The position numbers and the translations under genes are program-made. From NCBI RefSeq assembly GCF_011745625.1, contig NW_027191482.1:124001-188000 (forward strand): a DNA stretch of 64,000 nt, read 5' to 3'. Shown here in pieces: positions 21,265-34,159 of this stretch. The DNA comes from Cladosporium halotolerans. Its lineage: Eukaryota. Below the pieces are notes generated by a model. It made no database searches, was not told where the DNA came from, and saw only the letters and a program-made list of their open reading frames with translations. Numbering within the stretch: position 1 is the first letter of the stretch; every line of letters begins with the position of its first letter.

Positions 21265-22117
21265 TTGCCAGAGCACAGCAATGGAATACAACCAGGCAAT
21301 CCCCAAGCCGTAGGTGATATACGCCACGATATGGTGCAGGCGCTAATGATTGCTCCCTTAGCCGCATTCCCGTCCTCTGCTGGGGCCACAAAGGTACCCA
21401 TTCAACGCTCGCCAAGAAATCCCTCATCTTGCTTGCTGAAACAATATACTTCCAGACCTTCCAAAGCAGAACGGCATCGTCACTTACAGGCTGTCGCCGA
21501 ACCAGATCAAGATCTCGAAGCATTTTTGGACACAGCGCGGCTGGCTAAACACACTTCGGAGGTGCAGCAGCCAGTTCTTATACGTCGTGCCACCAATGTT
21601 CGCTGCGTATCTTCTGATGACGTGGGCTGAAGATAAGTGAGTGCCTAGTAATACTATCTCGCTTTGACCGTTGTGGCTGCTCACGCTATGCTTTTATAGG
21701 AGTCGTTTCTTGAACTCGAAAGAAGGGAGGGCTTTGTATGGTGATGTGGACGACGGCTAGGGAAGCAAAGACAGGAGCAATATTCGGACCTCTGACGATC
21801 CGATAAACGATGTTCACCATAGCTAGTCTTTCAACATTCACGCCGGTGGGACCTCGCGAAATCTCCTGGCAGAGGCTGATGAGAATCCGGTACTCGCGAC
21901 CAAGAGTTGTTTTCGCTCCCAAGTTTGAAGAAACGAGTATTTGAAAAGCCGCATTTTGCAGAGAGCGGACAAGAAGAGCAGCCACCAGGATAGAGTCTTC
22001 GATGCCTATGTTCAAATACTTCCCGTCGCCCTCGGCAAACTTCGAGAAGCGAAGCGCCACGCGATCGCGAATGCTTCGCCATGTCTAACGTCTAAATACC
22101 AGAAAACGTCCCCGTGA
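21265..22117 (+). pseudogene. Possible degraded gene relic with an intact-looking intron (21637-21699) and several in-frame stops
   Basis: GTGAGT...GCTCAC...TTTTATAG intron signals. Protein-like frames on both sides are interrupted by TGA, TAA and TAG and need one frameshift. No family recognised; 5' limit uncertain. Confidence 0.35.
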
Positions 22118-22562
22118 TAGGAAACAATGGTAGCTACATTCAATGACATCAGACTTGCTCTGACTTCTCGCAATCAAAGAAAAACTACAGCGCTTACAAA
22201 AAATGGAAATTGTCGAAACAAAGGGTTGATGTTAAATCATGAAAACGATTCGGTGACGGCAGATGAAAACGCGGTACCTGGCGTATTATTGTTTTATTTT
22301 CACCAGAGCTTGCAGTCTGCGATACAACTTCTTGGACGCAATGTCCTTCGGTAGCGGGGAAAGGACGCTGTTGGGATTGGGATCTTCGTATGCGAGGCTG
22401 CATGAGTACACAGCCACCGACTAATAATTTAGCTGCATCGGCAAGCGCCTGCTAACATGTGCCATTTTTGAGCTCAGCGATGCGGCAGCCTTGATGCGAT
22501 CGTAACCCACATCGAAAAACACGACTACTTTCAGCTAGGAGATCTTATTATAAAAAGGTGCT

Positions 22563-25439
22563 ATGGAGCCTCGCGATCAGCAGGCCGAACTCGAGGATGA
22601 AAGCGGCGCCGCGTTGTTGTTGGCGGAGGCCATGACGCCCACAGAAGACCACAACCTCGTGCGCCAGCAATACGCCCATATGACGGTCAAAGACTCCGCC
22701 AGGTTGCATGCGGGCAATTCGTACGTTGGCCATCAACATAATTACTATGCACCAACGACACACCGAGAGGGTTTTTATCCTACAGATTTAAGCCTGAAGA
22801 ATGCACTGGCGTTTCCTGACATGAACCTCCGCTCCGTCAGTATCGCAAGAGAGCAGTCGCAGACATGTGAATGGCTTTTCGAAACTCAAGAATACAAGAG
22901 ATGGCGCAGCCCAGCGTTTCGATCATTACATCACGGTATACTGTGGATTCGGGGAAAGCCTGGTGCCGGAAAATCGACGCTCATGAAGTACGCTGTAAGG
23001 AAGCACCGAGAAGACTCCAAACGTCACGACCGACAGATATCATTCTTCTTCAATGCGAGAGGGAAAAGCCGGCCAGAGAAATCCACAGAAGGCATGTACC
23101 GCGCTCTTCTCCATCAAGTAGTAGAAGAAGTACCCCAACTACAAGACATGGCTGAGCCCGAAGCAAGAGAAAGTTTCCACAAGCAAGGGTGGCCTCTCGA
23201 GCTATTGAAAGACATGTTCCGCGAAGCTATGCTTTTCTGTGGTCGGAAGGATACCCTCACGTGCTATATCGATGCTTTGGATGAATGCGACGAAGATGAG
23301 ATGCGGGAAATGCTCTGGATGCTCGAAGACCTGGGTGAAGAAGCGACCTCCGCTGGTGTAGCCTTGTGGATCTGCGTGGCGAGTCGGCATTATCCGAATA
23401 TAAGGATCAGTAATCTCGAGGAAATACTATTTGACGACCTCGAAGGACATCAAGAAGACATCTCTTTATATGTGCAGAAGAAACTGAAACTGCAAGACAT
23501 TGGGGACAAACTTGACTTGGCTGAAGAAATCAGACAGAGATCATCCGGAGTCTTCCTATGGGTAGTCCTGGTGGTCGCTATCCTCAACAAGGTCCGCGAC
23601 CACGGAAACATTCACCAGCTGCGAGATCGTCTGCTCAAGATCCCTACGAGCTTACGAGATCTGTTCGACGACATACTGAATAGGGACGAGTCAAACGAGA
23701 GCCTAACACCCATGATCCAGTGGACCTTGTGTGCTGGAAGACGTTTGACCGCTCTCGAGCTATACTTCGCAGTCTTGATCTCTACGAAGCAATTGAAAGC
23801 CGCAACACTCCCATGGGATAGCACTCTTGTGAGCCGGCATGTGCTACGAGACTTCATACTCACTGGGTCAAAGGGCTTCCTAGAGATGAGCGTGCTTCCT
23901 CTCGACGGCCGACCTGATGAATGGCAGTATCAATTCATTCACGAGTCTGTGCGGGAGTTCTTTATCGATCATGGATTACAAAGGCTTGACCCATTGATAC
24001 AAGGCAAAGTGGTAGCCGCCAGCCACGAGCGGCTTGCTGGGTCATGCATCCAATACATATCCTTGCTCAGCACAGCCTTGGCTGATGCGTCCACAGACTC
24101 CGCAGCTCAAAACATGTATCCTTTTCTGGGATACATCTGTCATTACGGAGGATTCTATCACGCAGAGCAAGCTGAAAGCAGAGGTCTGTGTCAGTCCACA
24201 TTCTGCAACAAATTCCCTTTAGACGACTGGATTCTGGTGCAAGTGCTGACGCAAGAATCTGGTCCAGCACTTCATTATGTAGAGTATCACGCGACCTTGT
24301 TGCACATTCTCATCGAGCAAGAGTATCAATACCTGGCAAAGCGAGTGGTCCGGGAAAATACCACGTCCACGAGTGCCCGCGGCAGAGGTCGAGCGTGCAT
24401 AAACGCCCATTATGGACACCTGGGGACAGCACTACATATGGCAGTGGAGCGCAACAACCACGAGATTCTTCGTGTTCTCCTAGACTGTGGAGCCAATACA
24501 ACCGTGCAATGCGGTGATCTGGGGACTGCATTACACTTAGCAGTGAGCCGCAACCACATGAAGGCCATCCGTACCCTCTTGTCCGGTGGAGCTGAAATTG
24601 ACGCCCTGCATGAGAATAAAGGGACTGCACTTCACATTGCGGCGACTCACAGCTACACGGAAGTCGTGTTCCTTCTCTTGACTTCTGGTGCTGATGTAAA
24701 CGTATTTTTGGGTGGCGTCGGAACCGCACTCCATGCCGCAGTGCTCTATCATCACCCAAAGATTGCAAAACTGCTCATAGACAGCGGAGCTGATGTTAAC
24801 GCTCGACACAGCGACGAAAAACGACAAACGCGCTCCGAAACCCCGTTACACATCGCAGTGGGTAGACTCGTCGATGACCCAGAGGTCACTCGTATCCTGT
24901 TAGAGAACGGAGCCGACATCAACGTCCGGCGCAAACGCGAGCGGGTCAGAAGGCCGGCTTTGAGCGAAACTGCATTGCACATTGCCTTGCGTGGTAGAAA
25001 CCTTGCGGTCACACACGTTCTCGTGGAAAGTGGTGCCGACCTCAACATTTGCCGCCAGCCTGGCGAGACTGTGTTGAAGACCGCGGCGGAGTCATCGCCC
25101 GAATGCGTGCGCTGCCTGCTCGAGCGAAATGCTAATCTCAACATCTGGAACAGAGCCGACTTCGGAGACTTCCTTAAAACTGTGGCTAAAGTCAGCAACC
25201 AGGCGGAACAAATCTTGCATTTGCTTATCGAATTCAACGTGCTTGCAACAATTTCACATGACGACATGTTTGCCGCCTTGGAGGCAGCCAGCACACGCGA
25301 CCGCCTCCCGGTGGCCTTTATGGAGATCGTGCTTCAACAATTGCCGGACAGTGCGCACTCCGATTCGAAGTATGATCGTGTGATGGCCCTCTTCCACCAA
25401 CGGCGTTGGATATCTCCGTTCTTTACTTTAAAGGGATAA
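22563..25439 (+). CDS. Fungal NLR: N-terminal amyloid (HRAM-like) motif + NACHT NTPase + ankyrin repeats
   Basis: TCEWL, LWIRGKPGAGKSTLMK (Walker A, 22953-22979), FFFNARG, YIDALDEC (Walker B), SGVFLWV and FIHESVREF, followed by about 7 ankyrin repeats (GTALH/ETPLH). The true start may be Met24 (22632). Confidence 0.93.
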   Translation: MEPRDQQAELEDESGAALLLAEAMTPTEDHNLVRQQYAHMTVKDSARLHAGNSYVGHQHNYYAPTTHREGFYPTDLSLKNALAFPDMNLRSVSIAREQSQTCEWLFETQEYKRWRSPAFRSLHHGILWIRGKPGAGKSTLMKYAVRKHREDSKRHDRQISFFFNARGKSRPEKSTEGMYRALLHQVVEEVPQLQDMAEPEARESFHKQGWPLELLKDMFREAMLFCGRKDTLTCYIDALDECDEDEMREMLWMLEDLGEEATSAGVALWICVASRHYPNIRISNLEEILFDDLEGHQEDISLYVQKKLKLQDIGDKLDLAEEIRQRSSGVFLWVVLVVAILNKVRDHGNIHQLRDRLLKIPTSLRDLFDDILNRDESNESLTPMIQWTLCAGRRLTALELYFAVLISTKQLKAATLPWDSTLVSRHVLRDFILTGSKGFLEMSVLPLDGRPDEWQYQFIHESVREFFIDHGLQRLDPLIQGKVVAASHERLAGSCIQYISLLSTALADASTDSAAQNMYPFLGYICHYGGFYHAEQAESRGLCQSTFCNKFPLDDWILVQVLTQESGPALHYVEYHATLLHILIEQEYQYLAKRVVRENTTSTSARGRGRACINAHYGHLGTALHMAVERNNHEILRVLLDCGANTTVQCGDLGTALHLAVSRNHMKAIRTLLSGGAEIDALHENKGTALHIAATHSYTEVVFLLLTSGADVNVFLGGVGTALHAAVLYHHPKIAKLLIDSGADVNARHSDEKRQTRSETPLHIAVGRLVDDPEVTRILLENGADINVRRKRERVRRPALSETALHIALRGRNLAVTHVLVESGADLNICRQPGETVLKTAAESSPECVRCLLERNANLNIWNRADFGDFLKTVAKVSNQAEQILHLLIEFNVLATISHDDMFAALEAASTRDRLPVAFMEIVLQQLPDSAHSDSKYDRVMALFHQRRWISPFFTLKG

Positions 25440-25978
25440 TAATGCCTGCTTGCTCTGAATGAGAACGATCACATCTCACTATGAAGATGGAAACCATATG
25501 AGCGGCCCGATTGCCGCTATATTGACTGAGGAGTTTACGCTCAGTCTCATGTACAGAATGGAAATGCAGTGCAGCTTTCTAAGATCAGTCACGTGTATCG
25601 ATCGGGTTCTTGAAAGGGTGAAGAATGCTTTCGCTTCAGTGTCACAAGTGCCGCGCAGGGACATATAAGGGTGTTGAGCGTGATGTACAGCTCACAACCC
25701 ACGCTCCCCAAATCGCCAAAAAGGTGTTAAGATGCGTCAGGCCTGCACAACCGACGCACTGCGCGAACATTAGAAAGGAACTACACAATTCGGATTGATA
25801 TCTAAGCAGATATCTTGATCTCTCGGGCCGCTCCGGTGCCCAGCACTGGCGATTGCCCCCAGCCGTGATAAGCCACTCATTGCCACTCCACTTCTTCGTT
25901 CTTGTCCCTTAAGCTTATTTGTTTCTCAGCCGCTCACCTACCATCATCGATGCGCCGGAAGATTACCGACTATTGATC

Positions 25979-26812
25979 ATGTCGGGATCCATGCTTCCCT
26001 CAATCGCGACAATCTTACAAAGTACAGATGTTCTGAGTGCCCCCGATGCTTCAGCGACCGTGGTCAGAGTTGGAGAGTATTTTGCGGTGAAATACGGCAC
26101 TTCAGTCTCCCTGCTTGAAGCACAAAATTTGAGTTTCATCGCAGATAACAGCAATGTCCCAGTCCCTAAAACATATGGCACATTGACCGAGGAAAGTACG
26201 GGACGAAACTTCATCATCATGGAGATGGTACCGGGAGAGCCTCTTTCAAAAGCCCGGCCAAACCTCACCTCTGCTGAGAAACGTGATGTTGCTGAACAAA
26301 TCCAAAGAGCCATGATCAATCTGCGCAACATCCCTCCCGCTGGCTATATCGGATCACTTGCTCGACAGCCCTGCGCTGACGGAGTCTTTTGGGCCCCAGA
26401 TCGTCCAGCTGATCCGTCATTGTCGGGACCGTTTGACACAGAGGATGACATGAATCAAGGGATTTTGCGAAAACTAGAGTCGAGCGAGCATCGTTCATAT
26501 GTGGGCTTCTTACGCACCCTCATGTTGGCGACACTGCACAGCCACCGAACATTCTTCACGCACGGAGACCTTCAGCCAAAAAACGTGATAGTGCAAAGGA
26601 GTACTAGCGCAAGAGGTGAGACGTCACTACTGAAGATCAGGATCATCGATTGGGAGGTGGCAGGCTGGTACCCGGAGTACTGGGAATCTTGCAACGCAAC
26701 GATAAGTGCTCGCTTCGACGCAGATTGGCTGGATCTTGTGCAGAGCGCTATGTCAATGTACCCGCATGAATATTTGATGATGCAAGTGATACGGCAATTG
26801 ATGTTCTACTAA
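25979..26812 (+). CDS. Aminoglycoside-phosphotransferase / protein-kinase-like (APH family) protein
   Basis: AVKYG, EAQNL, VPVPK, FTHGDLQPKNV (catalytic loop) and IIDWEVAGWYPEYWE. First ATG at 25979. Confidence 0.88.
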   Translation: MSGSMLPSIATILQSTDVLSAPDASATVVRVGEYFAVKYGTSVSLLEAQNLSFIADNSNVPVPKTYGTLTEESTGRNFIIMEMVPGEPLSKARPNLTSAEKRDVAEQIQRAMINLRNIPPAGYIGSLARQPCADGVFWAPDRPADPSLSGPFDTEDDMNQGILRKLESSEHRSYVGFLRTLMLATLHSHRTFFTHGDLQPKNVIVQRSTSARGETSLLKIRIIDWEVAGWYPEYWESCNATISARFDADWLDLVQSAMSMYPHEYLMMQVIRQLMFY

Positions 26813-27141
26813 AGCATGGTGGGGTTTGTTCTCGTTGAGGTCCTGATATTTCGGAGCGGCGGCACCATAACGATGCACAGGCGAGAGCCTGCGCGCCAAT
26901 TGTAGTGTCGAAGGATTGAGGCCTGGGCTTTGGCAGGGTAGAAGGAATTACGAGATTACACGTGCAAGATGAAACACTAGTCGAGACACTCAAAACGCCT
27001 GAGTCGAAAGTGTATACGGAAGGAATCAGGTTGAGTCAAGCACAGTACCGAGCTTCGGTGGACTTTGACCCGGCTCGCAAACCACAATAACGTAGCTGCG
27101 ACGCACCCCTCTTGACTACAGACTTCTCCAACCCTCAGAGA

Positions 27142-28324
27142 ATGCTTTCAGACAGCGGTGCAGACCAAGAAGACCTCTGCGCAGCGAATCGAGATGGTGA
27201 TGTCGCGCTTGTTTCACGACTCCTGGCCAATTACCCCTTTGACGCCGACGATGCCACTGCAGCTCTGGACGATGCCGAGCTGGACCCTACGATCATCCGC
27301 ATCCTTCTCCAGCATGGCGCCGACGTCAAAGTCGTTTCTATACGCATGATTCCGTGTTCTGACACGCCTGGCGAACTCATGAGACTCCTTGCCGAGTACA
27401 AGTACGACTTCAAGTCAGATGGTCATCGCATACTCCAGTCAGTCTCAACCACGATCTCTTGCTTAAGACAGGTAGACTAATGCTTCTTAGAGACTTCGAC
27501 CACGACCGCGAAACGCTCGACTGGCTGCTTGACCGGGGTGCAGACATCAACCGCACAGACAGTCAACGGCTCGACGACGGCTTCAATCTTGCTATAGGAG
27601 AGACGGACAGTGCCTTACACTTGCTCAATAACGTAGCAGCAAGTGGCGACATCGACCTATTCGATCACCTTATTACTCGGGGAGCCGACACGTCGCTCTG
27701 CACAGCTCTTCATTCTGCGTCACGATGTAAAGACATCGAGACGTCTAGAGCTATGGTTTGCCATCTGCTAGATAAACACAACATGGACATCAATCGGAAT
27801 AGAATAACGACGACCTACGCCACTTTTACCATGACCCTGAGGATTCTGGCTCGCCTCTCTGCAGCGCGATAATTCACAAAAACCTTGCCGTTGTTCACGA
27901 GTTGCTCAAGAGAGGCGCAAGTGTGAATCCTCCCGATTGGTCTCCTGTTATCTACGCGGTGAAGGCGGGAGGATTCCTCCCTGCCCTGGAGCCGCTCTTG
28001 CGTGCTGGGGCTGATGCAACCGACGCTTTGAAGGTATCGGTGATTAAAAGCAATATCGATGCTGCAAAAACCTGTTTGCAATTTGGGGCAGACCCCGCTC
28101 CTGGATTGCGCGAAGCCATTGCGCAGGAGGAGTACAGAACAAACACAATCGCCGAGAATGCGGCGTATTTTGAGAGCAGACCGGAGTTAAGCTACATAAA
28201 GAGCGAGAAAGAGGTGAAGAAAGAAAGGGCGGAAGAGCGGGAGAGCCAGGAGATGGTCGCGTTGCTGAAGAGCGCGATGGCATACTTACATACTACTATG
28301 CCTAATGTCGCTGTCTTTCACTGA
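27142..28324 (+). pseudogene. Ankyrin-repeat protein gene with a 5-bp duplication frameshift (intron 27438-27490)
   Basis: Ankyrin motifs LLQHGADV, WLLDRGADIN, TALHSA, SPLCSA and LLRAGAD. The frame breaks at GAATAGAATA (27797-27806); deleting one copy restores a continuous ORF to 28324. Confidence 0.8.
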
Positions 28325-31290
28325 TGGCTTCAAGTCTGCATGCTTGCACTTTCGTCAAATCAGTCTCTGTGGTGCAAGTCCTTCGTAGTGACCTTCCCTG
28401 TCTCATGGGGTCGGTGCTAGTAATATCGTTCATTTCGCAAAGCCTGCGTCATGCCGTCGTTCCTTCTTTTGTTGTTTTATCACAATTGTGTTATTGCTTT
28501 GCTGATCTCGAATCCAGTACCTGGCTTTGCTACACTTTCCAGAGGCGGGCGTTTGAGTAGACTCCTGATCAAACCTTCTCAATAGGTGTGGGCAAAGCAC
28601 CTCACGGCCACTCGTGGCAGGGTTCATGAATAGCTGGTGGAGAGGGGCCATTTGCTTCGCCGTCTCGATGTAGCCAGCGTTGGCATCAATGATATCATCT
28701 TCGCAGTGACTCAGGGGGTGCTGGCGTGGATCGCATGGGTCACAAGGATGAAGAAGGTGATCTTAGTGAGCGTAGTGCTTTGTTAGAAAATTGAGATTCA
28801 AGGCTTGCGAGGCACCGCTGCCCATACGGGCGTACAATTGTAGAGTTGGCAGGACGACACTGTGCTTCTTCCAATACCTACTCTGGCATGCAGACACGTA
28901 TGCGCCGTACTTCGGTGGACCCTACCGGACGCGCATAAGTGGCAACCGCAAACGGAATCGGCAATAACTCGATCAATCAGTCTGCCATAATGAGCGGAGT
29001 CGCATTTCGCCGCAGGTCGTTTTGATCGATGAGTATTGATATGAGCAGGAGATGCGTGGGAATCCATAGACGTGACCTAGACGCATGTGATGTGCAAGAG
29101 CGTCTAGCACAGTTGCGCTTCCCTTCACCGGAGGGATGACTACACGAACCAGAAAGGCATTGCTTGCAATGTTTGCCGCTCGCCACAGCCTCAACGAGCC
29201 GTAAATGAATGCTGAGCGGCAGCACCAGCATAACCTTCCATTCGCAGCGTCCCAAGATTGCGCCGGAAGACCAGACCCGGCCGAAGGAATGCAGACAGGC
29301 TTACGTACACCCAGCAGCCAGAACATAAAGCCATGGCGAGAAACACATCCTCGCCCACGGGATTCTAGAGCCGCCACAGACAGTCAGCGGCTCAAAACTT
29401 CATACACCTCCCAAGGCTCTCGAACAGCCCTCGTCCCAGACAAATGCCAGCGACAATCCAGATCATCGCCTATCGGAGAATTCTAGATGTCGTCTGGCGT
29501 GATTGGGTGAGCAGAGAGAGGAAGCAGCCTTAATCGCCAGGCCCTGCATGGGAATTTTGCAGAATGATGGCTCTGGACCCATCTTTCTCGTAGTGAATGT
29601 CTGGAAACGCGGGGATTGGGTTGAGGTTCCGAAGAGGTACTTGGTACATATGACTTAGATCCCGGGACGGCAGTGGGTGCTTGCATCCGAGAGCTATTTT
29701 GATGAGCTCTCTCGCTGACTGTGGTGACTCTCGAGCAACCAGCAAACATCTGCAGCGTGAGCAGCCTCGAAGTGAAGTCTGGATCGCAGTCAGCAGTCCT
29801 CCAGATTACGATTTGCAGCCTCAGGCCCGCCCGGACGTCGGACAACGCTCGTCGGCGGCCTCCCGCAGCGAAGCTTCGCCGCAGAGCCAATCGAGCCGAT
29901 CACGCGACAAGACCAAAGATCGCAATCTCACAATGCCATCTAGACCTCTCTGCGTCAGACACAGTGCGCACGCACAATCTGCACGGAGCCAGACACCGTC
30001 TCACGTCTCGCTGGCCAGGCGACAAAACAAGAGAGCGTCAGCAGTCGCATTATTATTGCATCGTCACAGACAGGACAGCGCCCGGAGACGCCACGGACAT
30101 CATCTCTCGAGGCGCTCGGCAACGCGTCACGGCAAGTCGGGGTCGCCAGCGAGCGCGCAGGTTGGCAGCCCCAAGACGCTTGGGTAATTTCCCCTGTTCC
30201 GACCAGCAACGGCGCGGCAGAGGCGCTGCGCCGGGCCAGACAAGTCTGCGGCCCCACGGCGCCGCACCGCTCGACTTTGTCCGTGAGGGAGGGAGGGATT
30301 GCGATGCGATTGGGATGGGAGGTGCGTCGGAGGTGTGAGTGGATGTGATGGCTAGATTTTTTCGGGCATGAAAATTCACGATGCGTCGGGGAGTGGCTTG
30401 CTGACGTGTGGAAGAGGACGAGGAGCGCGACCAGGAGCACCGGCGTGGCGGGCTTGCTGATGGACGTACCGCCGGGTCGTGGTGATGATCCACGTGGAAG
30501 AGGGCTCTGTGGTGGTGTGCTGCGCGCGCGGGTTTGTGAGAGGCTGGAGGTTTCACACGGCGTACGCGCCTGCGGAGCCTATCGAGGACTAGGAGACGGA
30601 CAGCAATTTCGACAGGTCGGAAAGTGGTTTGCGCGTGTCAGCGATGGGAGTGATGTGGTGAGGTGAGGTGAGGCGGAGGTGGCTGCGTTGCTACAGGAGT
30701 GAGTGTGATGTGCAGCCGTCGCAACCCTGATCGCTATATGCATGGAGTTGCACACGCACGCGCGTGCGACAAGGCACTATTGTGTATCTATTGCAGTGCG
30801 TGCTGGAGCATCGCGGACGGCGCACTGCGCACTGCCGGCGCCTGGCCTGTTCCTGTCGCGCGTGCCGATCACTGATGCCCTAACGGCGGCGCTAAGCCCC
30901 TCGCGGCGCTGCAGTCATCTCGGTTGGCGGGAGGGTGTTGCCGGTAGCACAGGGGCAGCTGCTGGCCGCGCAGTGCTGGCTGGCGCTGCGCGCGCTGCTA
31001 GTCACCACCGCTCTCTTTTCAAAACCGCCGCGCCTCGCCGCCGACCCCGACCCTCCTCCTCCTCCCTGCCACGCATCCACCCAACGCCCACCGCAGTCGC
31101 TCTTTACAGCACCCCGTGCTAGCCCGTCGCTCATTCCCGATCGCGTTGCTCGCCTTCGCCGACTCTCCTTCTCGCCCGCCAGCCGTCTAGACCGCCCCTT
31201 GCGTGCCTCAGCCACCGCGTCTCTTCACGATCAACAAATACCCTCGCCGAATTGTTCCCAGCGCATTCGCGACTCTTACGAACATCCACA

Positions 31291-32802
31291 ATGAAGCAGT
31301 TCATCGGCGCCGCAGCGGCGCTCCTCTACACCAGCGCGGTCTCCGCCAACCTTGAGGCTCGCCAGAACAACTGCGACAACGCCGTCAACGATGGCGGTAA
31401 CTGGTACTGCTCCATGGTCAAGGCCATCACCTACAACGGTGTCAGCGGCGGCGACAACAAGTACAACAAGATCACCAGCATGGACGGCGACTCTGGCTCC
31501 TGCCAGAGCACTCCCTTCTCCTACTCCGGCAACATGGCTCCCCTCGACGAGGAGGTACGATAGCCCATCCACGCCGGCGAGCAATGCCGAGCCACGCGCG
31601 ACGCGTGAACCCAATGTCGCAGACAATGCTGACTTACGTCCCTCCAGGTCTCCATGCACGTCCGTGGTCCGGCCAAGCTGAAGCAGTTCGCCGTCTACAC
31701 CCCTGGTGGCTCCTCTTCCGACAGCAAGGTCCGCCGCAGCGCCACTGCCCGCCGTCACGCCCACGCTCACGCCCACGCCCACAAGCGTGAGGCTGACGCT
31801 GCCCTCGGCGACATGGTCTACGCCACCATCAATGGCCAGGTCCAGAGCTGGGCCAACAACTGGTCTGGTGAGCCCACTTCCGCCCCGGCCGCCTACTCCG
31901 CCCCGGCTGCCACCAGCGCTCCGGCTGTCCAGAACAAGGCCTACGACGCTCCCTCCAGCGCCGCCGCCTACTCTGAGGCTCCCTCTTCCGCGGCTGCTTC
32001 TTCTGCTCCCGCCTCTTCTTCCAGCTCCAGCTCCAGCGGCGGCCTCTTCGGCCTCGGTGGCTCTTCCGGCGACTGGACCCGCCAGGCCTACTACAACGCC
32101 GAGTCTGGCGACGCTGACGGCCTTGTCTTCCTGAACCACAACGGTGGCTCTGGCTCTGGTGTCTTCGACTACTCTTTCGGCAACTCCCTCTCCTACGCCC
32201 GCGCCGACGGCAAGGGCGGCAGCTCTTCTCCTGAGGTTCTTGACGACTGCGAGCTTGCCTCCTCTGACGAGATCATCATCATGTCCGACAAGGAGTGCGA
32301 GGGTGACAGCTGCGGCTACTACCGCCCCGGCACCGTCGCCCACCACGGTTTCGGCGGCGCCGAGAAGGCCTTCTTCTTCGAGTTCCAGATGCCCGACGAC
32401 GGCCAGTCCAGCGCCAACAAGTACGACCCGGTCAACATGCCCGCCATCTGGATGCTGAACGCCCAGATCCCCCGCACTCTCCAGTACGGCAACGCCGAGT
32501 GCTCCTGCTGGACCTCCGGCTGCGGCGAGTTCGACATCTTCGAGGTCCTGGCTCCCGGTGACAAGCGCATGAAGTCCACCCTCCACGGCAACGTCAACGG
32601 CGGCTCCAGCGACTACTTCGACCGCCCCTGCGACAACACCATCAAGGCCGTCATGGTCATGAAGGACAACGACATCCACATCAAGGTCCTCGACGACAGC
32701 ACCGAGTTCGGCAGCACCATGCCCGGCTCCCAGATCGACGACGTTTGCGGCTCCCAGGACCTCCTCTCCCAGCTCTTCTCCGTCTTCAACCTGTCTTCTT
32801 AG
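31291..32802 (+). CDS. TOS1: Secreted Tos1/Pga52-family cell-wall protein (DUF2403 + DUF2401; intron 31555-31647)
   Basis: Signal peptide, GGNWYC, APLDEE|VSMHVRGPAKLKQFAVY, a Ser/Ala linker, NMPAIWMLNAQIPRTLQYG, CSCWTSGCGEFDIFEVL and DYFDRP. Confidence 0.9.
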
Positions 32803-34159
32803 ATGGATGTGTTGACGTTGGGGGCTGGCGGCGTGGCTGGCGCGGATCTTAACCATATAACCTTCTCGTATACCTCCAGTTGCTTTGGTTTGTTCTCTCT
32901 CTGAAATTTTAACGCCTTCGCTACGGCGGGGTATGTTCTGTCTCACGAATTTTACTCGCATGCTTCATCTCTTCATTTCTCCTCTGCATCTTCACACCAG
33001 ACCCGTCGTTCTGCTACAGCGGATGCCACCCGCGGAGCAACTTGGCGGCGCTTCCGAGTTTCTTCAGTTCAGTCCGGAGGAAAAGCCACATTCTCCAGGC
33101 TGATTTGATTTGTTGGATGGAGCTTTTGTCGCCTTGCTAGGCCTTTGGCTGACGGTTATCAATTTTGATGTCTGGATTAGCTCATCGGGGTCAGTTGGGT
33201 TATCTTCCGTAATCTCTAGGTCTTTGCGATAGTAGTGTATATGCATGCTTCCATGGTTCATGCTTGCGTTCCCCGTTGTGTGCTAAAGAAGTCATGTCTT
33301 CGCATGGGCAGGTGTTTGGTGGCGCTCAAACAGTGCCCGTAGAACGTGACCCAGTCTGTGATCTCCACAGTCTGTCTGCAGATTATTAGCTCGCCGTCAC
33401 GACCTTACCTCGTTGACTGATGCTGCTGCGTGCATGCAGGTGAAGTGGCAGAAGACCGTCGCAGCTTGTGGCGCGCTGCTGGAGCAATGTGAGGCGTGAT
33501 GTGCGCTGTCTCGTGAAGTCGATGCAGCAAGCCTCAAACGAGCGCATGATATCTGCAAATAAATGCAGCACCGACTTGCAATGCGCATCTGATGGAAGCA
33601 CGTTGCTTACTACTGTACATTGTACAGTAGTTTGTAGAGGTTGCAAGAAAATCGGACCGCCCGGAAGCACCTGCTACGCGCGGCAAGTCTTCCCGCTCTG
33701 AGCGACGAGTGTGGAGAGATCCGGGGTCGGCGCTCGTCGGCAAGGCCGCTGCTTGTGAAGCCTGAAGGGCCGAGGCAGGAAGGGAAGGCTGGGCGCTGCG
33801 CTGCGCAAAGTGTAATCGCATCGTCGCCGACGACACACGTTGTTCTCGCTCTGACAACTACCCTGCACTACGACAACGACGCCCACTGCCAGCGCATACA
33901 CGACGGACGCACGGGACCTGGATACGTGCGCTTGGCTACGACTGCGGTGTTTTGACGACGACGACGCTGCTGACCGGATCTTGCGCGAGAGTGGTGACGG
34001 CATCGCGATATCACAACATTCGCCGACCGGCATTTGCATACACGGATAGGGAGACTGGAAAATAGGAGCAAGCGCATATCAGGAACCGAGTCTCGAGACT
34101 CAAACGCGCAGAGCGCATTGTATCGGTGCGAGCAAGGCTAGGGCCTCGCTCGGCCCAAC

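Follow-up and report, generated by a model that had tools for sequence, protein, structure and literature searches.

A fixed unit of 30 residues near the N-terminus of a fungal NOD-like receptor (NLR) is proposed here to be the receptor side (r0-type) of an amyloid signalling system related to that of HET-s, with its effector encoded elsewhere in the genome; we put the probability of this reading at about one half. The receptor lies in a 64,000-nucleotide stretch of the Cladosporium halotolerans genome (NCBI RefSeq assembly GCF_011745625.1, contig NW_027191482.1, positions 124,001 to 188,000 of the forward strand), hereafter the window, and was first pointed to by a sequence-only reading of that DNA. 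The unit, residues 35-64, is a translated, strongly selected and indel-free island that closely precedes the NACHT domain and has a variable segment on either side. The gene and its parts are laid out as follows, all on the + strand and in window coordinates:

22563..25439, + strand: NACHT-ankyrin NLR gene (P0001), a single open reading frame (ORF) of 958 residues, stop codon included in the coordinates; from ORF translation, Pfam and the full-length homologues P0002, P0023 and P0003
22563..22664, + strand: variable acidic leader, residues 1-34; column entropy mostly 1.8-3.1 bits, leader length 11-104 residues in 28 homologues
22665..22727, + strand: 21-residue unit resembling the HET-s-related amyloid motif (HRAM), residues 35-55, QQYAHMTVKDSARLHAGNSYV; from alignment conservation, published HRAM positions and the background rate of a regular expression
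22728..22754, + strand: conserved tail of the island, residues 56-64, GHQHNYYAP; family consensus E-x-Q-x-N-Y-Y-x-P
22755..22793, + strand: variable linker between the island and the NACHT N-terminal region, residues 65-77; entropy 1.8-3.6 bits, length 10-21 residues in the family
22860..23387, + strand: N-terminal part of the NACHT NTPase, Pfam NPHP3_N, residues 100-275; E 1.7e-32
22953-22979, + strand: Walker A, GKPGAGKST, residues 131-139; G134, G136, K137, S138 and T139 invariant
24411..24935, + strand: ankyrin repeats, residues 617-791 (best Pfam stretches Ank, Ank_2, Ank_3, Ank_4 and Ank_5), with more repeats after them

The gene thus encodes a fungal NACHT-ankyrin NLR of the STAND NTPase (signal transduction ATPase with numerous domains) type, with a Walker A NTPase followed by C-terminal ankyrin repeats. 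Besides NPHP3_N, Pfam placed NACHT at residues 127-282 (E 1.3e-7) and Ank in seven stretches starting at about residue 617 (E 1.2e-41). On residues 1-100, no family was matched at E<=10, including HET-s_218-289, NACHT_sigma and Ses_B, and the domain-free N-terminus therefore amounts to 99 residues. This bears out the earlier claim of an NLR lacking an N-terminal effector domain and corrects the length of about 60 residues that it had given to the free segment. Since the stop-to-stop frame of the NLR begins at 22554, only 9 nucleotides upstream of the ATG, an additional N-terminal domain is impossible in this exon. The sequence originally singled out, QQYAHMTVKDSARLHAGNSYVGHQHNYY, is encoded by 22665-22748 (+) and corresponds to residues 35-62. 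A tandem-repeat scan across the NLR gene yielded no arrays.

Homologues were collected in several ways. A word-based search with residues 1-100 returned three NLRs with a common N-terminus; a HMMER scan with a four-sequence profile of the motif against 1.84 billion representatives returned 16 proteins at E<=0.001; and a profile search among longer proteins returned 28 matches at E<=10, of which 24 carried PF24883, the other four being fragments of 80-191 residues. Conservation was read from 28 aligned members, all complete or nearly so, whose overall identity to P0001 was 39-97%. Four island residues (R47, H49, A50 and G51) were invariant in these members, a level equal to that of the Walker A residues, and seven more (S45, N52, S53, V55, Q58, N60 and Y61) were conserved in at least 90% of them. 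Conservation extended into the tail, where Q58 was found in 27/28 members, N60 and Y61 in 26/28 each, Y62 in 25/28 and P64 in 21/28. The island measured exactly 30 residues, with no insertion or deletion, in all 28 members, whereas the leader (11-104 residues) and the linker (10-21 residues) around it varied in length. Column entropy over residues 35-64 was 0-1.8 bits, residues 39 and 63 excepted, as opposed to mostly 1.8-3.6 bits in the flanks (residues 2-34 and 65-77). The composition of the island was likewise distinct: charged residues accounted for 9% of it versus 26% and 23% of the flanks, and Q, N, S, G, H and Y together for 63% versus 32% and 26%, the island being rich in serine and histidine. 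Homologous NLRs thus keep the motif, as the sequence-only reading requires, with flanks that vary.

At the nucleotide level, the 30 island codons of the window were compared with those of seven related metagenome loci (L001-L007), yielding proportions of synonymous differences (pS) of 0.80-0.98 and of non-synonymous differences (pN) of 0.16-0.32. With synonymous sites near saturation and the protein sequence kept, the island region is therefore translated and under protein-level selection, which answers the concern raised at the outset that translation might start downstream of the motif. A maximum-likelihood tree built from the 420 residues that follow the motif, the motif itself being excluded, resolved two deep clades (100/100) along with a number of supported lineages, and the island was retained in all of them.

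The fit of the island to the published HRAM pattern is the second line of evidence. In the definition of HRAMs, position 19 is Gly, position 15 is preferably R or K, and positions 5, 8, 16 and 18, together with 10 (at times T), are hydrophobic; position 3 is N, Q or H, with Q typical of HRAM2 and the HRAM2/5 supergroup, and a polar residue at position 17 pairs with a polar residue at position 21 (PMC4518210). A review describes the same pattern with a numbering offset by two, the beta-arc Gly being position 17 (PMC5485727). NLR-side r0 motifs show G or D at the arch position 12, fewer D, E and K, and more S and H (PMC4518210). Numbering the island such that G51 is position 19, as in PMC4518210, the 28 aligned members showed:

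Position 3: Q in 24/28, H in 1/28
Position 5: Y in 19 and F in 9 of 28
Position 8: I in 18, F in 6, M in 2 and L in 2 of 28
Position 10: A in 18, V in 3 and T in 3 (24/28); exceptions G in 3 and S in 1
Position 12 (arch): G in 18 and D in 10 of 28
Position 15: R in 28/28 (R47)
Position 16: I in 15, F in 6, V in 4 and L in 3; hydrophobic in 28/28
Position 17: H in 28/28
Position 18: A in 28/28
Position 19 (beta-arc): G in 28/28 (G51)
Position 20: N in 27/28
Position 21: S in 26/28

As judged from the alignment, the family shares all of the generic HRAM positions and, in addition, an r0-type composition, low in charge and high in Ser and His. The polar residue at position 17 (H) is accompanied by a polar residue at position 21 (S), as in HRAMs, and the Gln at position 3 points to the HRAM2/HRAM5 supergroup. 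Residues V5, I8, A10, G12, V16 and G19 of NWD2(3-23), which were probed by solid-state NMR, all have same-class counterparts in the island. Encoded as a regular expression, an encoding that was chosen after the motif had been seen, the HRAM pattern matched once in the 109,237 six-frame residues of the window, the match being the motif itself; it matched nine times in 125,087 residues of the related loci, seven of the matches being motif copies, and 43 times in 58 collected proteins, all on the motif, with one copy per protein. The strict pattern was matched by 22 of the 28 aligned members, as read off the match list by eye. When scored against motif models, as the sequence-only reading had proposed, the island thus held up with respect to the generic HRAM positions and r0 composition and failed with respect to Pfam, where HET-s_218-289, NACHT_sigma and Ses_B gave no match.

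The layout resembles that of NWD2/HET-S of Podospora anserina and of the HRAM1-5 pairs, in which a single unit of about 21 residues likewise precedes the NACHT domain of the NLR (PMC4344463, PMC4518210, PMC5485727). Common to both are the hydrophobic residues at positions 5, 8, 10, 16 and 18, the R at 15, the G at 19, the N at 20 and the G or D at the arch position 12. In contrast to those systems, the island sits behind a leader of 11-104 residues and is longer by nine residues (E-x-Q-x-N-Y-Y-x-P); H17 and A18 are invariant; no significant score was obtained against HET-s models; no adjacent or detectable r1/r2 effector accompanies the NLR; and the C-terminal domain is made of ankyrin repeats rather than of the WD repeats of NWD2. 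In having an HRAM-type receptor motif, the family also resembles class NLR12/HRAM3, of which the effectors are mostly non-adjacent and serve several NLRs each, the arrangement that we propose here (PMC9815663). There, the mean ratio of NLRs to PNP_UDP effectors is 5.7:1 (PMC9815663). Unlike HRAM3, which has His at position 3 (PMC4518210), the island has Gln, and no PNP_UDP protein carrying the motif was found in the database-wide search or among longer proteins.

A closer counterpart may exist in print. In Wojciechowski et al. 2022 (PMC9815663), class NLR40 consists of 24 ascomycete NLRs with an HRAM-related motif of 26 residues, for which no effectors are listed, either neighbouring or genome-wide. 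Among the 14 NLR40 rows found in supplementary table S2 of that paper, seven are NACHT-ANK proteins of 752-918 residues with the nucleotide-binding oligomerisation domain (NOD) starting at 97-146, and the motif of some NACHT-ANK rows starts at position 23 or 56 (PMC9815663). In our relative P0021, the island spans approximately residues 6-31, the span given for most NLR40 rows. By this comparison of positions, lengths and domains, the island family may be the published NLR40 class. Motif strings such as HAGNSY and SRVHAGN were not found in the literature text or in the supplements of PMC9815663, the sequence and HMM files of which lay outside the search. NLR34 is likewise an NLR-side class with no effectors (PMC9815663). 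Receptor-side HRAM-like motifs without a known effector are thus already in print, and the island family adds another candidate. Some of its traits are unusual: the unit is fixed at 30 residues and has a Q-x-N-Y-Y tail, the leaders vary and in one case include a small additional domain, and no linked partner was found.

In carrying a short motif at the N-terminus, the receptor also resembles the fungal NLRs with PP/RHIM, sigma and PUASM motifs, the last two of which are located 20-99 residues from the N-terminus (PMC9815663). None of these motifs accounted for the island. The Q-centred pseudo-palindrome GxQxG of PP/RHIM-like motifs is absent from residues 1-99. A sigma motif was rejected on the grounds that there is no threefold repeat of two submotifs over about 40 residues, no internal repeat within the 30-residue island and no NACHT_sigma match at E<=10. 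For PUASM, FxGxGxQxxGxGxF is absent at the N-terminus and no PNP_UDP gene lies near.

The results that weigh against an r0-type motif concern its likeness to HET-s itself, the placement and length of the island, and the search for a partner. The gap-free register to the quoted HET-s repeat was as the sequence-only reading had described it (Q at 1, Y/M/V at 3/6/8, AR at 12-13, L/A at 14/16 and GN at 17-18), and it was the best register in 10/10 family members tested. The likeness itself was no better than background: the BLOSUM62 pairwise score of 17 was equalled in 369 of 5000 shuffles of residues 1-99 (p ~0.07), and a site in the ankyrin region of the same protein scored 18. Neither PF11558 (HET-s_218-289), searched on residues 1-100, nor a PDB profile search with the motif yielded a match at E<=10, and the ESM Atlas held no usable match for residues 30-66. 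By sequence comparison, specific likeness to HET-s repeat 1 is thus at background level. PF11558 is matched by only 38 of 155 HRAM proteins (PMC4518210). Furthermore, the island does not lie at the very N-terminus, unlike that of most HRAM NLRs, the published copies starting mostly at positions 5-9 (PMC9815663), and the conserved unit is of 30 residues, not 21.

No partner was found by any of the approaches used. In a six-frame profile scan of the window, the NLR scored 87.7 bits and the next best site 5.8 bits, and no second copy was found with a simpler core pattern either. Pfam analysis of the 37 long ORFs of the window revealed no HeLo, HeLo-like, PNP_UDP, patatin or SesA/B gene, nor did that of the 76 ORF pieces of at least 60 residues between 18.8 and 33 kb; what it did reveal were housekeeping genes only (among them those for a sugar transporter, UcrQ, an APH-like phosphotransferase, ankyrin ORFs, a Tos1-like gene, Pex13, Msb1, SF3b1 and an NXF/Mex67-like gene). 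The seven related metagenome loci, which were taken by motif pattern together with at most 10 kb of flanking sequence per side, each contained one motif copy, on an NLR, at 68-75 bits, and no second copy, the next best site scoring about 10 bits. The 105 ORFs of L001-L006 were housekeeping neighbours with no HeLo, HeLo-like, PNP_UDP, patatin or SesA/B gene among them. The neighbourhood of L001 is that of L002, L003, L004 and L005 have another in common, and the window has a third; the family is therefore located at several unrelated places. Neither the window nor the related loci yielded an HRAM-like domain with two repeats, in agreement with the earlier statement that the window holds no two-repeat partner of the HeLo/HELL type. 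Loose matches to a double HRAM core (four in the window and four in the loci) were rejected as antisense frames or hydrophobic segments devoid of the N/Q/H, R/K and G-N positions, as was a 683-residue ORF upstream of the NLR in L003 and L005, which is Arg/Ser/Pro/Gly-rich, of low complexity and without the motif.

Database-wide, 13 of the 16 matches continued into the NACHT N-terminal region, two were short N-terminal fragments and one (P0019) was an unrelated repeat protein. The motif was found at the C-terminus of a non-NLR protein in none of these 16, nor in any of the 28 matches from the longer-protein search; the matching C-terminal motif expected from the sequence-only reading thus failed to appear. 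Between r0 and r1/r2, as we infer, identity is usually only about 35-40%; a partner motif at that level would have missed significance in the database-wide search, and the missing partner is therefore weak evidence. Among published HRAM HeLo genes, 98 of 155 adjoin an NLR and 57 do not (PMC4518210).

Two aspects of the gene itself bear on where its translation starts. The public protein P0022 (333 residues, NCBI/UniRef), which belongs to the same 90% cluster, is identical to P0001 over the ankyrin end only, beginning at Met626 (window 24438-25439); the NACHT part and the motif seem to be lacking from the public gene model, and the gene is likely under-annotated. Upstream, TATAAAAA is found at 22550-22557; if it served as the TATA box, the mRNA might begin further downstream and its translation at Met24 (22632), a start that would keep the whole motif, at approximately residue 12, as in P0004. 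An RNA-library run (X23) contained a 151-nucleotide contig over 22621-22771, and run X21, guessed to be RNA, contained contigs over 22441-22591 and 22609-22753; both consist of assembled contigs only and may reflect DNA contamination.

For the family itself, anatomy, conservation and pattern fit are shown. How the receptor might operate, stacking and templating included, is taken from NWD2/HET-S and the other HRAM pairs by analogy, as follows. Sensing of a ligand by the ankyrin domain would lead the NACHT domains to oligomerize and thereby gather the N-terminal islands, which would stack in register into a nucleus akin to a beta-arch or beta-solenoid with Gly51-Asn52 as its arc. This nucleus would then template the related motif of an effector, be it a cell-death protein or an enzyme, that would be encoded elsewhere and probably be common to several paralogous NLRs. 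The effector is placed elsewhere because no partner was found over ~20-40 kb of the window or over up to 10 kb around the NLR at six related loci.

Other readings of the island have to be set against this one. The island could be a non-amyloid conserved element of this NLR clade, such as an adaptor-binding site or a segment that keeps the receptor inhibited by docking on its NACHT or its ankyrin domain, the likeness to HRAMs being coincidental. We consider this somewhat unlikely. Background scores with the Pfam amyloid-motif models, the PDB profile and the pairwise comparison would all be expected of such an element, as would an island longer than the HRAM unit and set behind leaders of up to 104 residues, an invariant H49 and A50 that do not define HRAMs, and the lack of a partner. 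It leaves to coincidence, however, that the generic HRAM positions occur together, against a background of approximately one per 100,000 residues, that the arch G/D choice, the invariant G-N and a composition of the r0 type agree with published descriptions, and that the island occupies the usual site of signalling modules in fungal NLRs. The possibility that the likeness is a matter of chance, the motif lying in 5′ sequence that has no function or is untranslated and the protein starting only beyond it, is close to refuted. It could draw on P0022, which consists of the ankyrin end only, and on the TATA-like TATAAAAA only 6-13 nucleotides upstream of the first ATG; yet the amino acids are conserved where synonymous sites are near saturation, island length is constant in 28/28 homologues, and a Met24 start still includes the motif while a Met40 start would remove conserved residues.

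Alternatively, an amyloid-like motif may serve the receptor only, forming a cross-beta scaffold among copies of the NLR or among paralogous NLRs that stabilizes or polymerizes the signalosome, with no effector templated and the output arising by other means. This we regard as unlikely. Its appeal is that the motif was confined to NLRs in every search, that its very low charge suits homotypic in-register stacking, that NLR classes with no effectors are on record (NLR40, labelled 'HRAM', and NLR34) and that a role in signalosome assembly has been proposed for such motifs (PMC9815663, Discussion). On the other hand, an NLR without an effector domain or partner has no evident output, and the same blindness to partners ~35-40% identical takes weight from their absence. 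Slightly more doubtful is the reading that this NLR clade has its own derivative of the HET-s motif, confined to receptors, in which the fixed 30-residue unit, an HRAM rung plus the Q-x-N-Y-Y tail, would follow leaders that vary and in one case form a small helical domain, without a partner of the HeLo type; the polymerized receptor would then itself be the output or would template an effector of an unrecognised type that lacks the motif at its C-terminus.

The leaders and alleles of the gene deserve mention in their own right. In the lineage of P0044 (residues 1-88 = L001:9731-9994), P0042, P0050, P0052, P0009 and P0010, the motif is preceded by an extra N-terminal segment of ~60-100 residues which carries a conserved L-R-E-I-C-x-x-Y-G-A-D-A-S-G-T and looks like a small helical, SAP-like domain. 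The segment had no Pfam, PDB or Atlas match, the P0044 leader yielding only a chance match (E 1.3). As to alleles, two near-identical full-length versions of the NLR exist (P0002 and P0023). On one 33-kb contig, the gene appears as three separate ORFs (P0005, P0024 and P0025), with the frame lost just past the motif, and contigs from run X20 show a 1-nucleotide deletion at 22768 and a 790-nucleotide skip of 22897-23688 with non-intron ends (GA..AC). The X20 contigs and the three-ORF contig, placed at 90% likeness, look like disrupted alleles in other strains. Disrupted alleles are common among NLR genes.

Directly downstream of the NLR and on the same strand lies a gene for an APH-family phosphotransferase-like protein (25913-26809; Pfam APH, E 1.2e-10), followed at 27091-28324 by three overlapping ankyrin ORFs in three + frames, which represent either a frameshifted gene or one interrupted by short introns. 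These ORFs were rejected as a close copy of the ankyrin domain of the NLR (E 0.03 only). Further on, a GC-rich block (30000-32964; 62-67% versus ~50% around the NLR) carries a Tos1-like cell-wall gene on the + strand and, on the - strand, a 562-residue ORF (31276-32964) without a Pfam match that is probably an antisense artefact. Remnants of a Tc5/pogo-type transposase (HTH_Tnp_Tc5 and DDE_1) are found in L002:2732-3901, ~6 kb upstream of the NLR of that locus. Finally, runs labelled as air, urban, dust and soil metagenomes contained 0.42-0.47 of the words sampled from 22000-25600, which no more than hints at a wide distribution of the fungus or its near relatives.

Few signalling routes of fungal immunity have been worked out, and one of them is the templating of amyloid by an NLR onto a death effector; the N-termini of many NLRs are still unannotated. 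The family described here provides a well-delimited and strongly constrained candidate motif on NACHT-ankyrin receptors, present in several paralogous lineages with no effector linked to it. Should the peptide form amyloid, the family would be a clean test case for signalling by unlinked or receptor-only motifs; should it form none, the HRAM position pattern alone would not be diagnostic.

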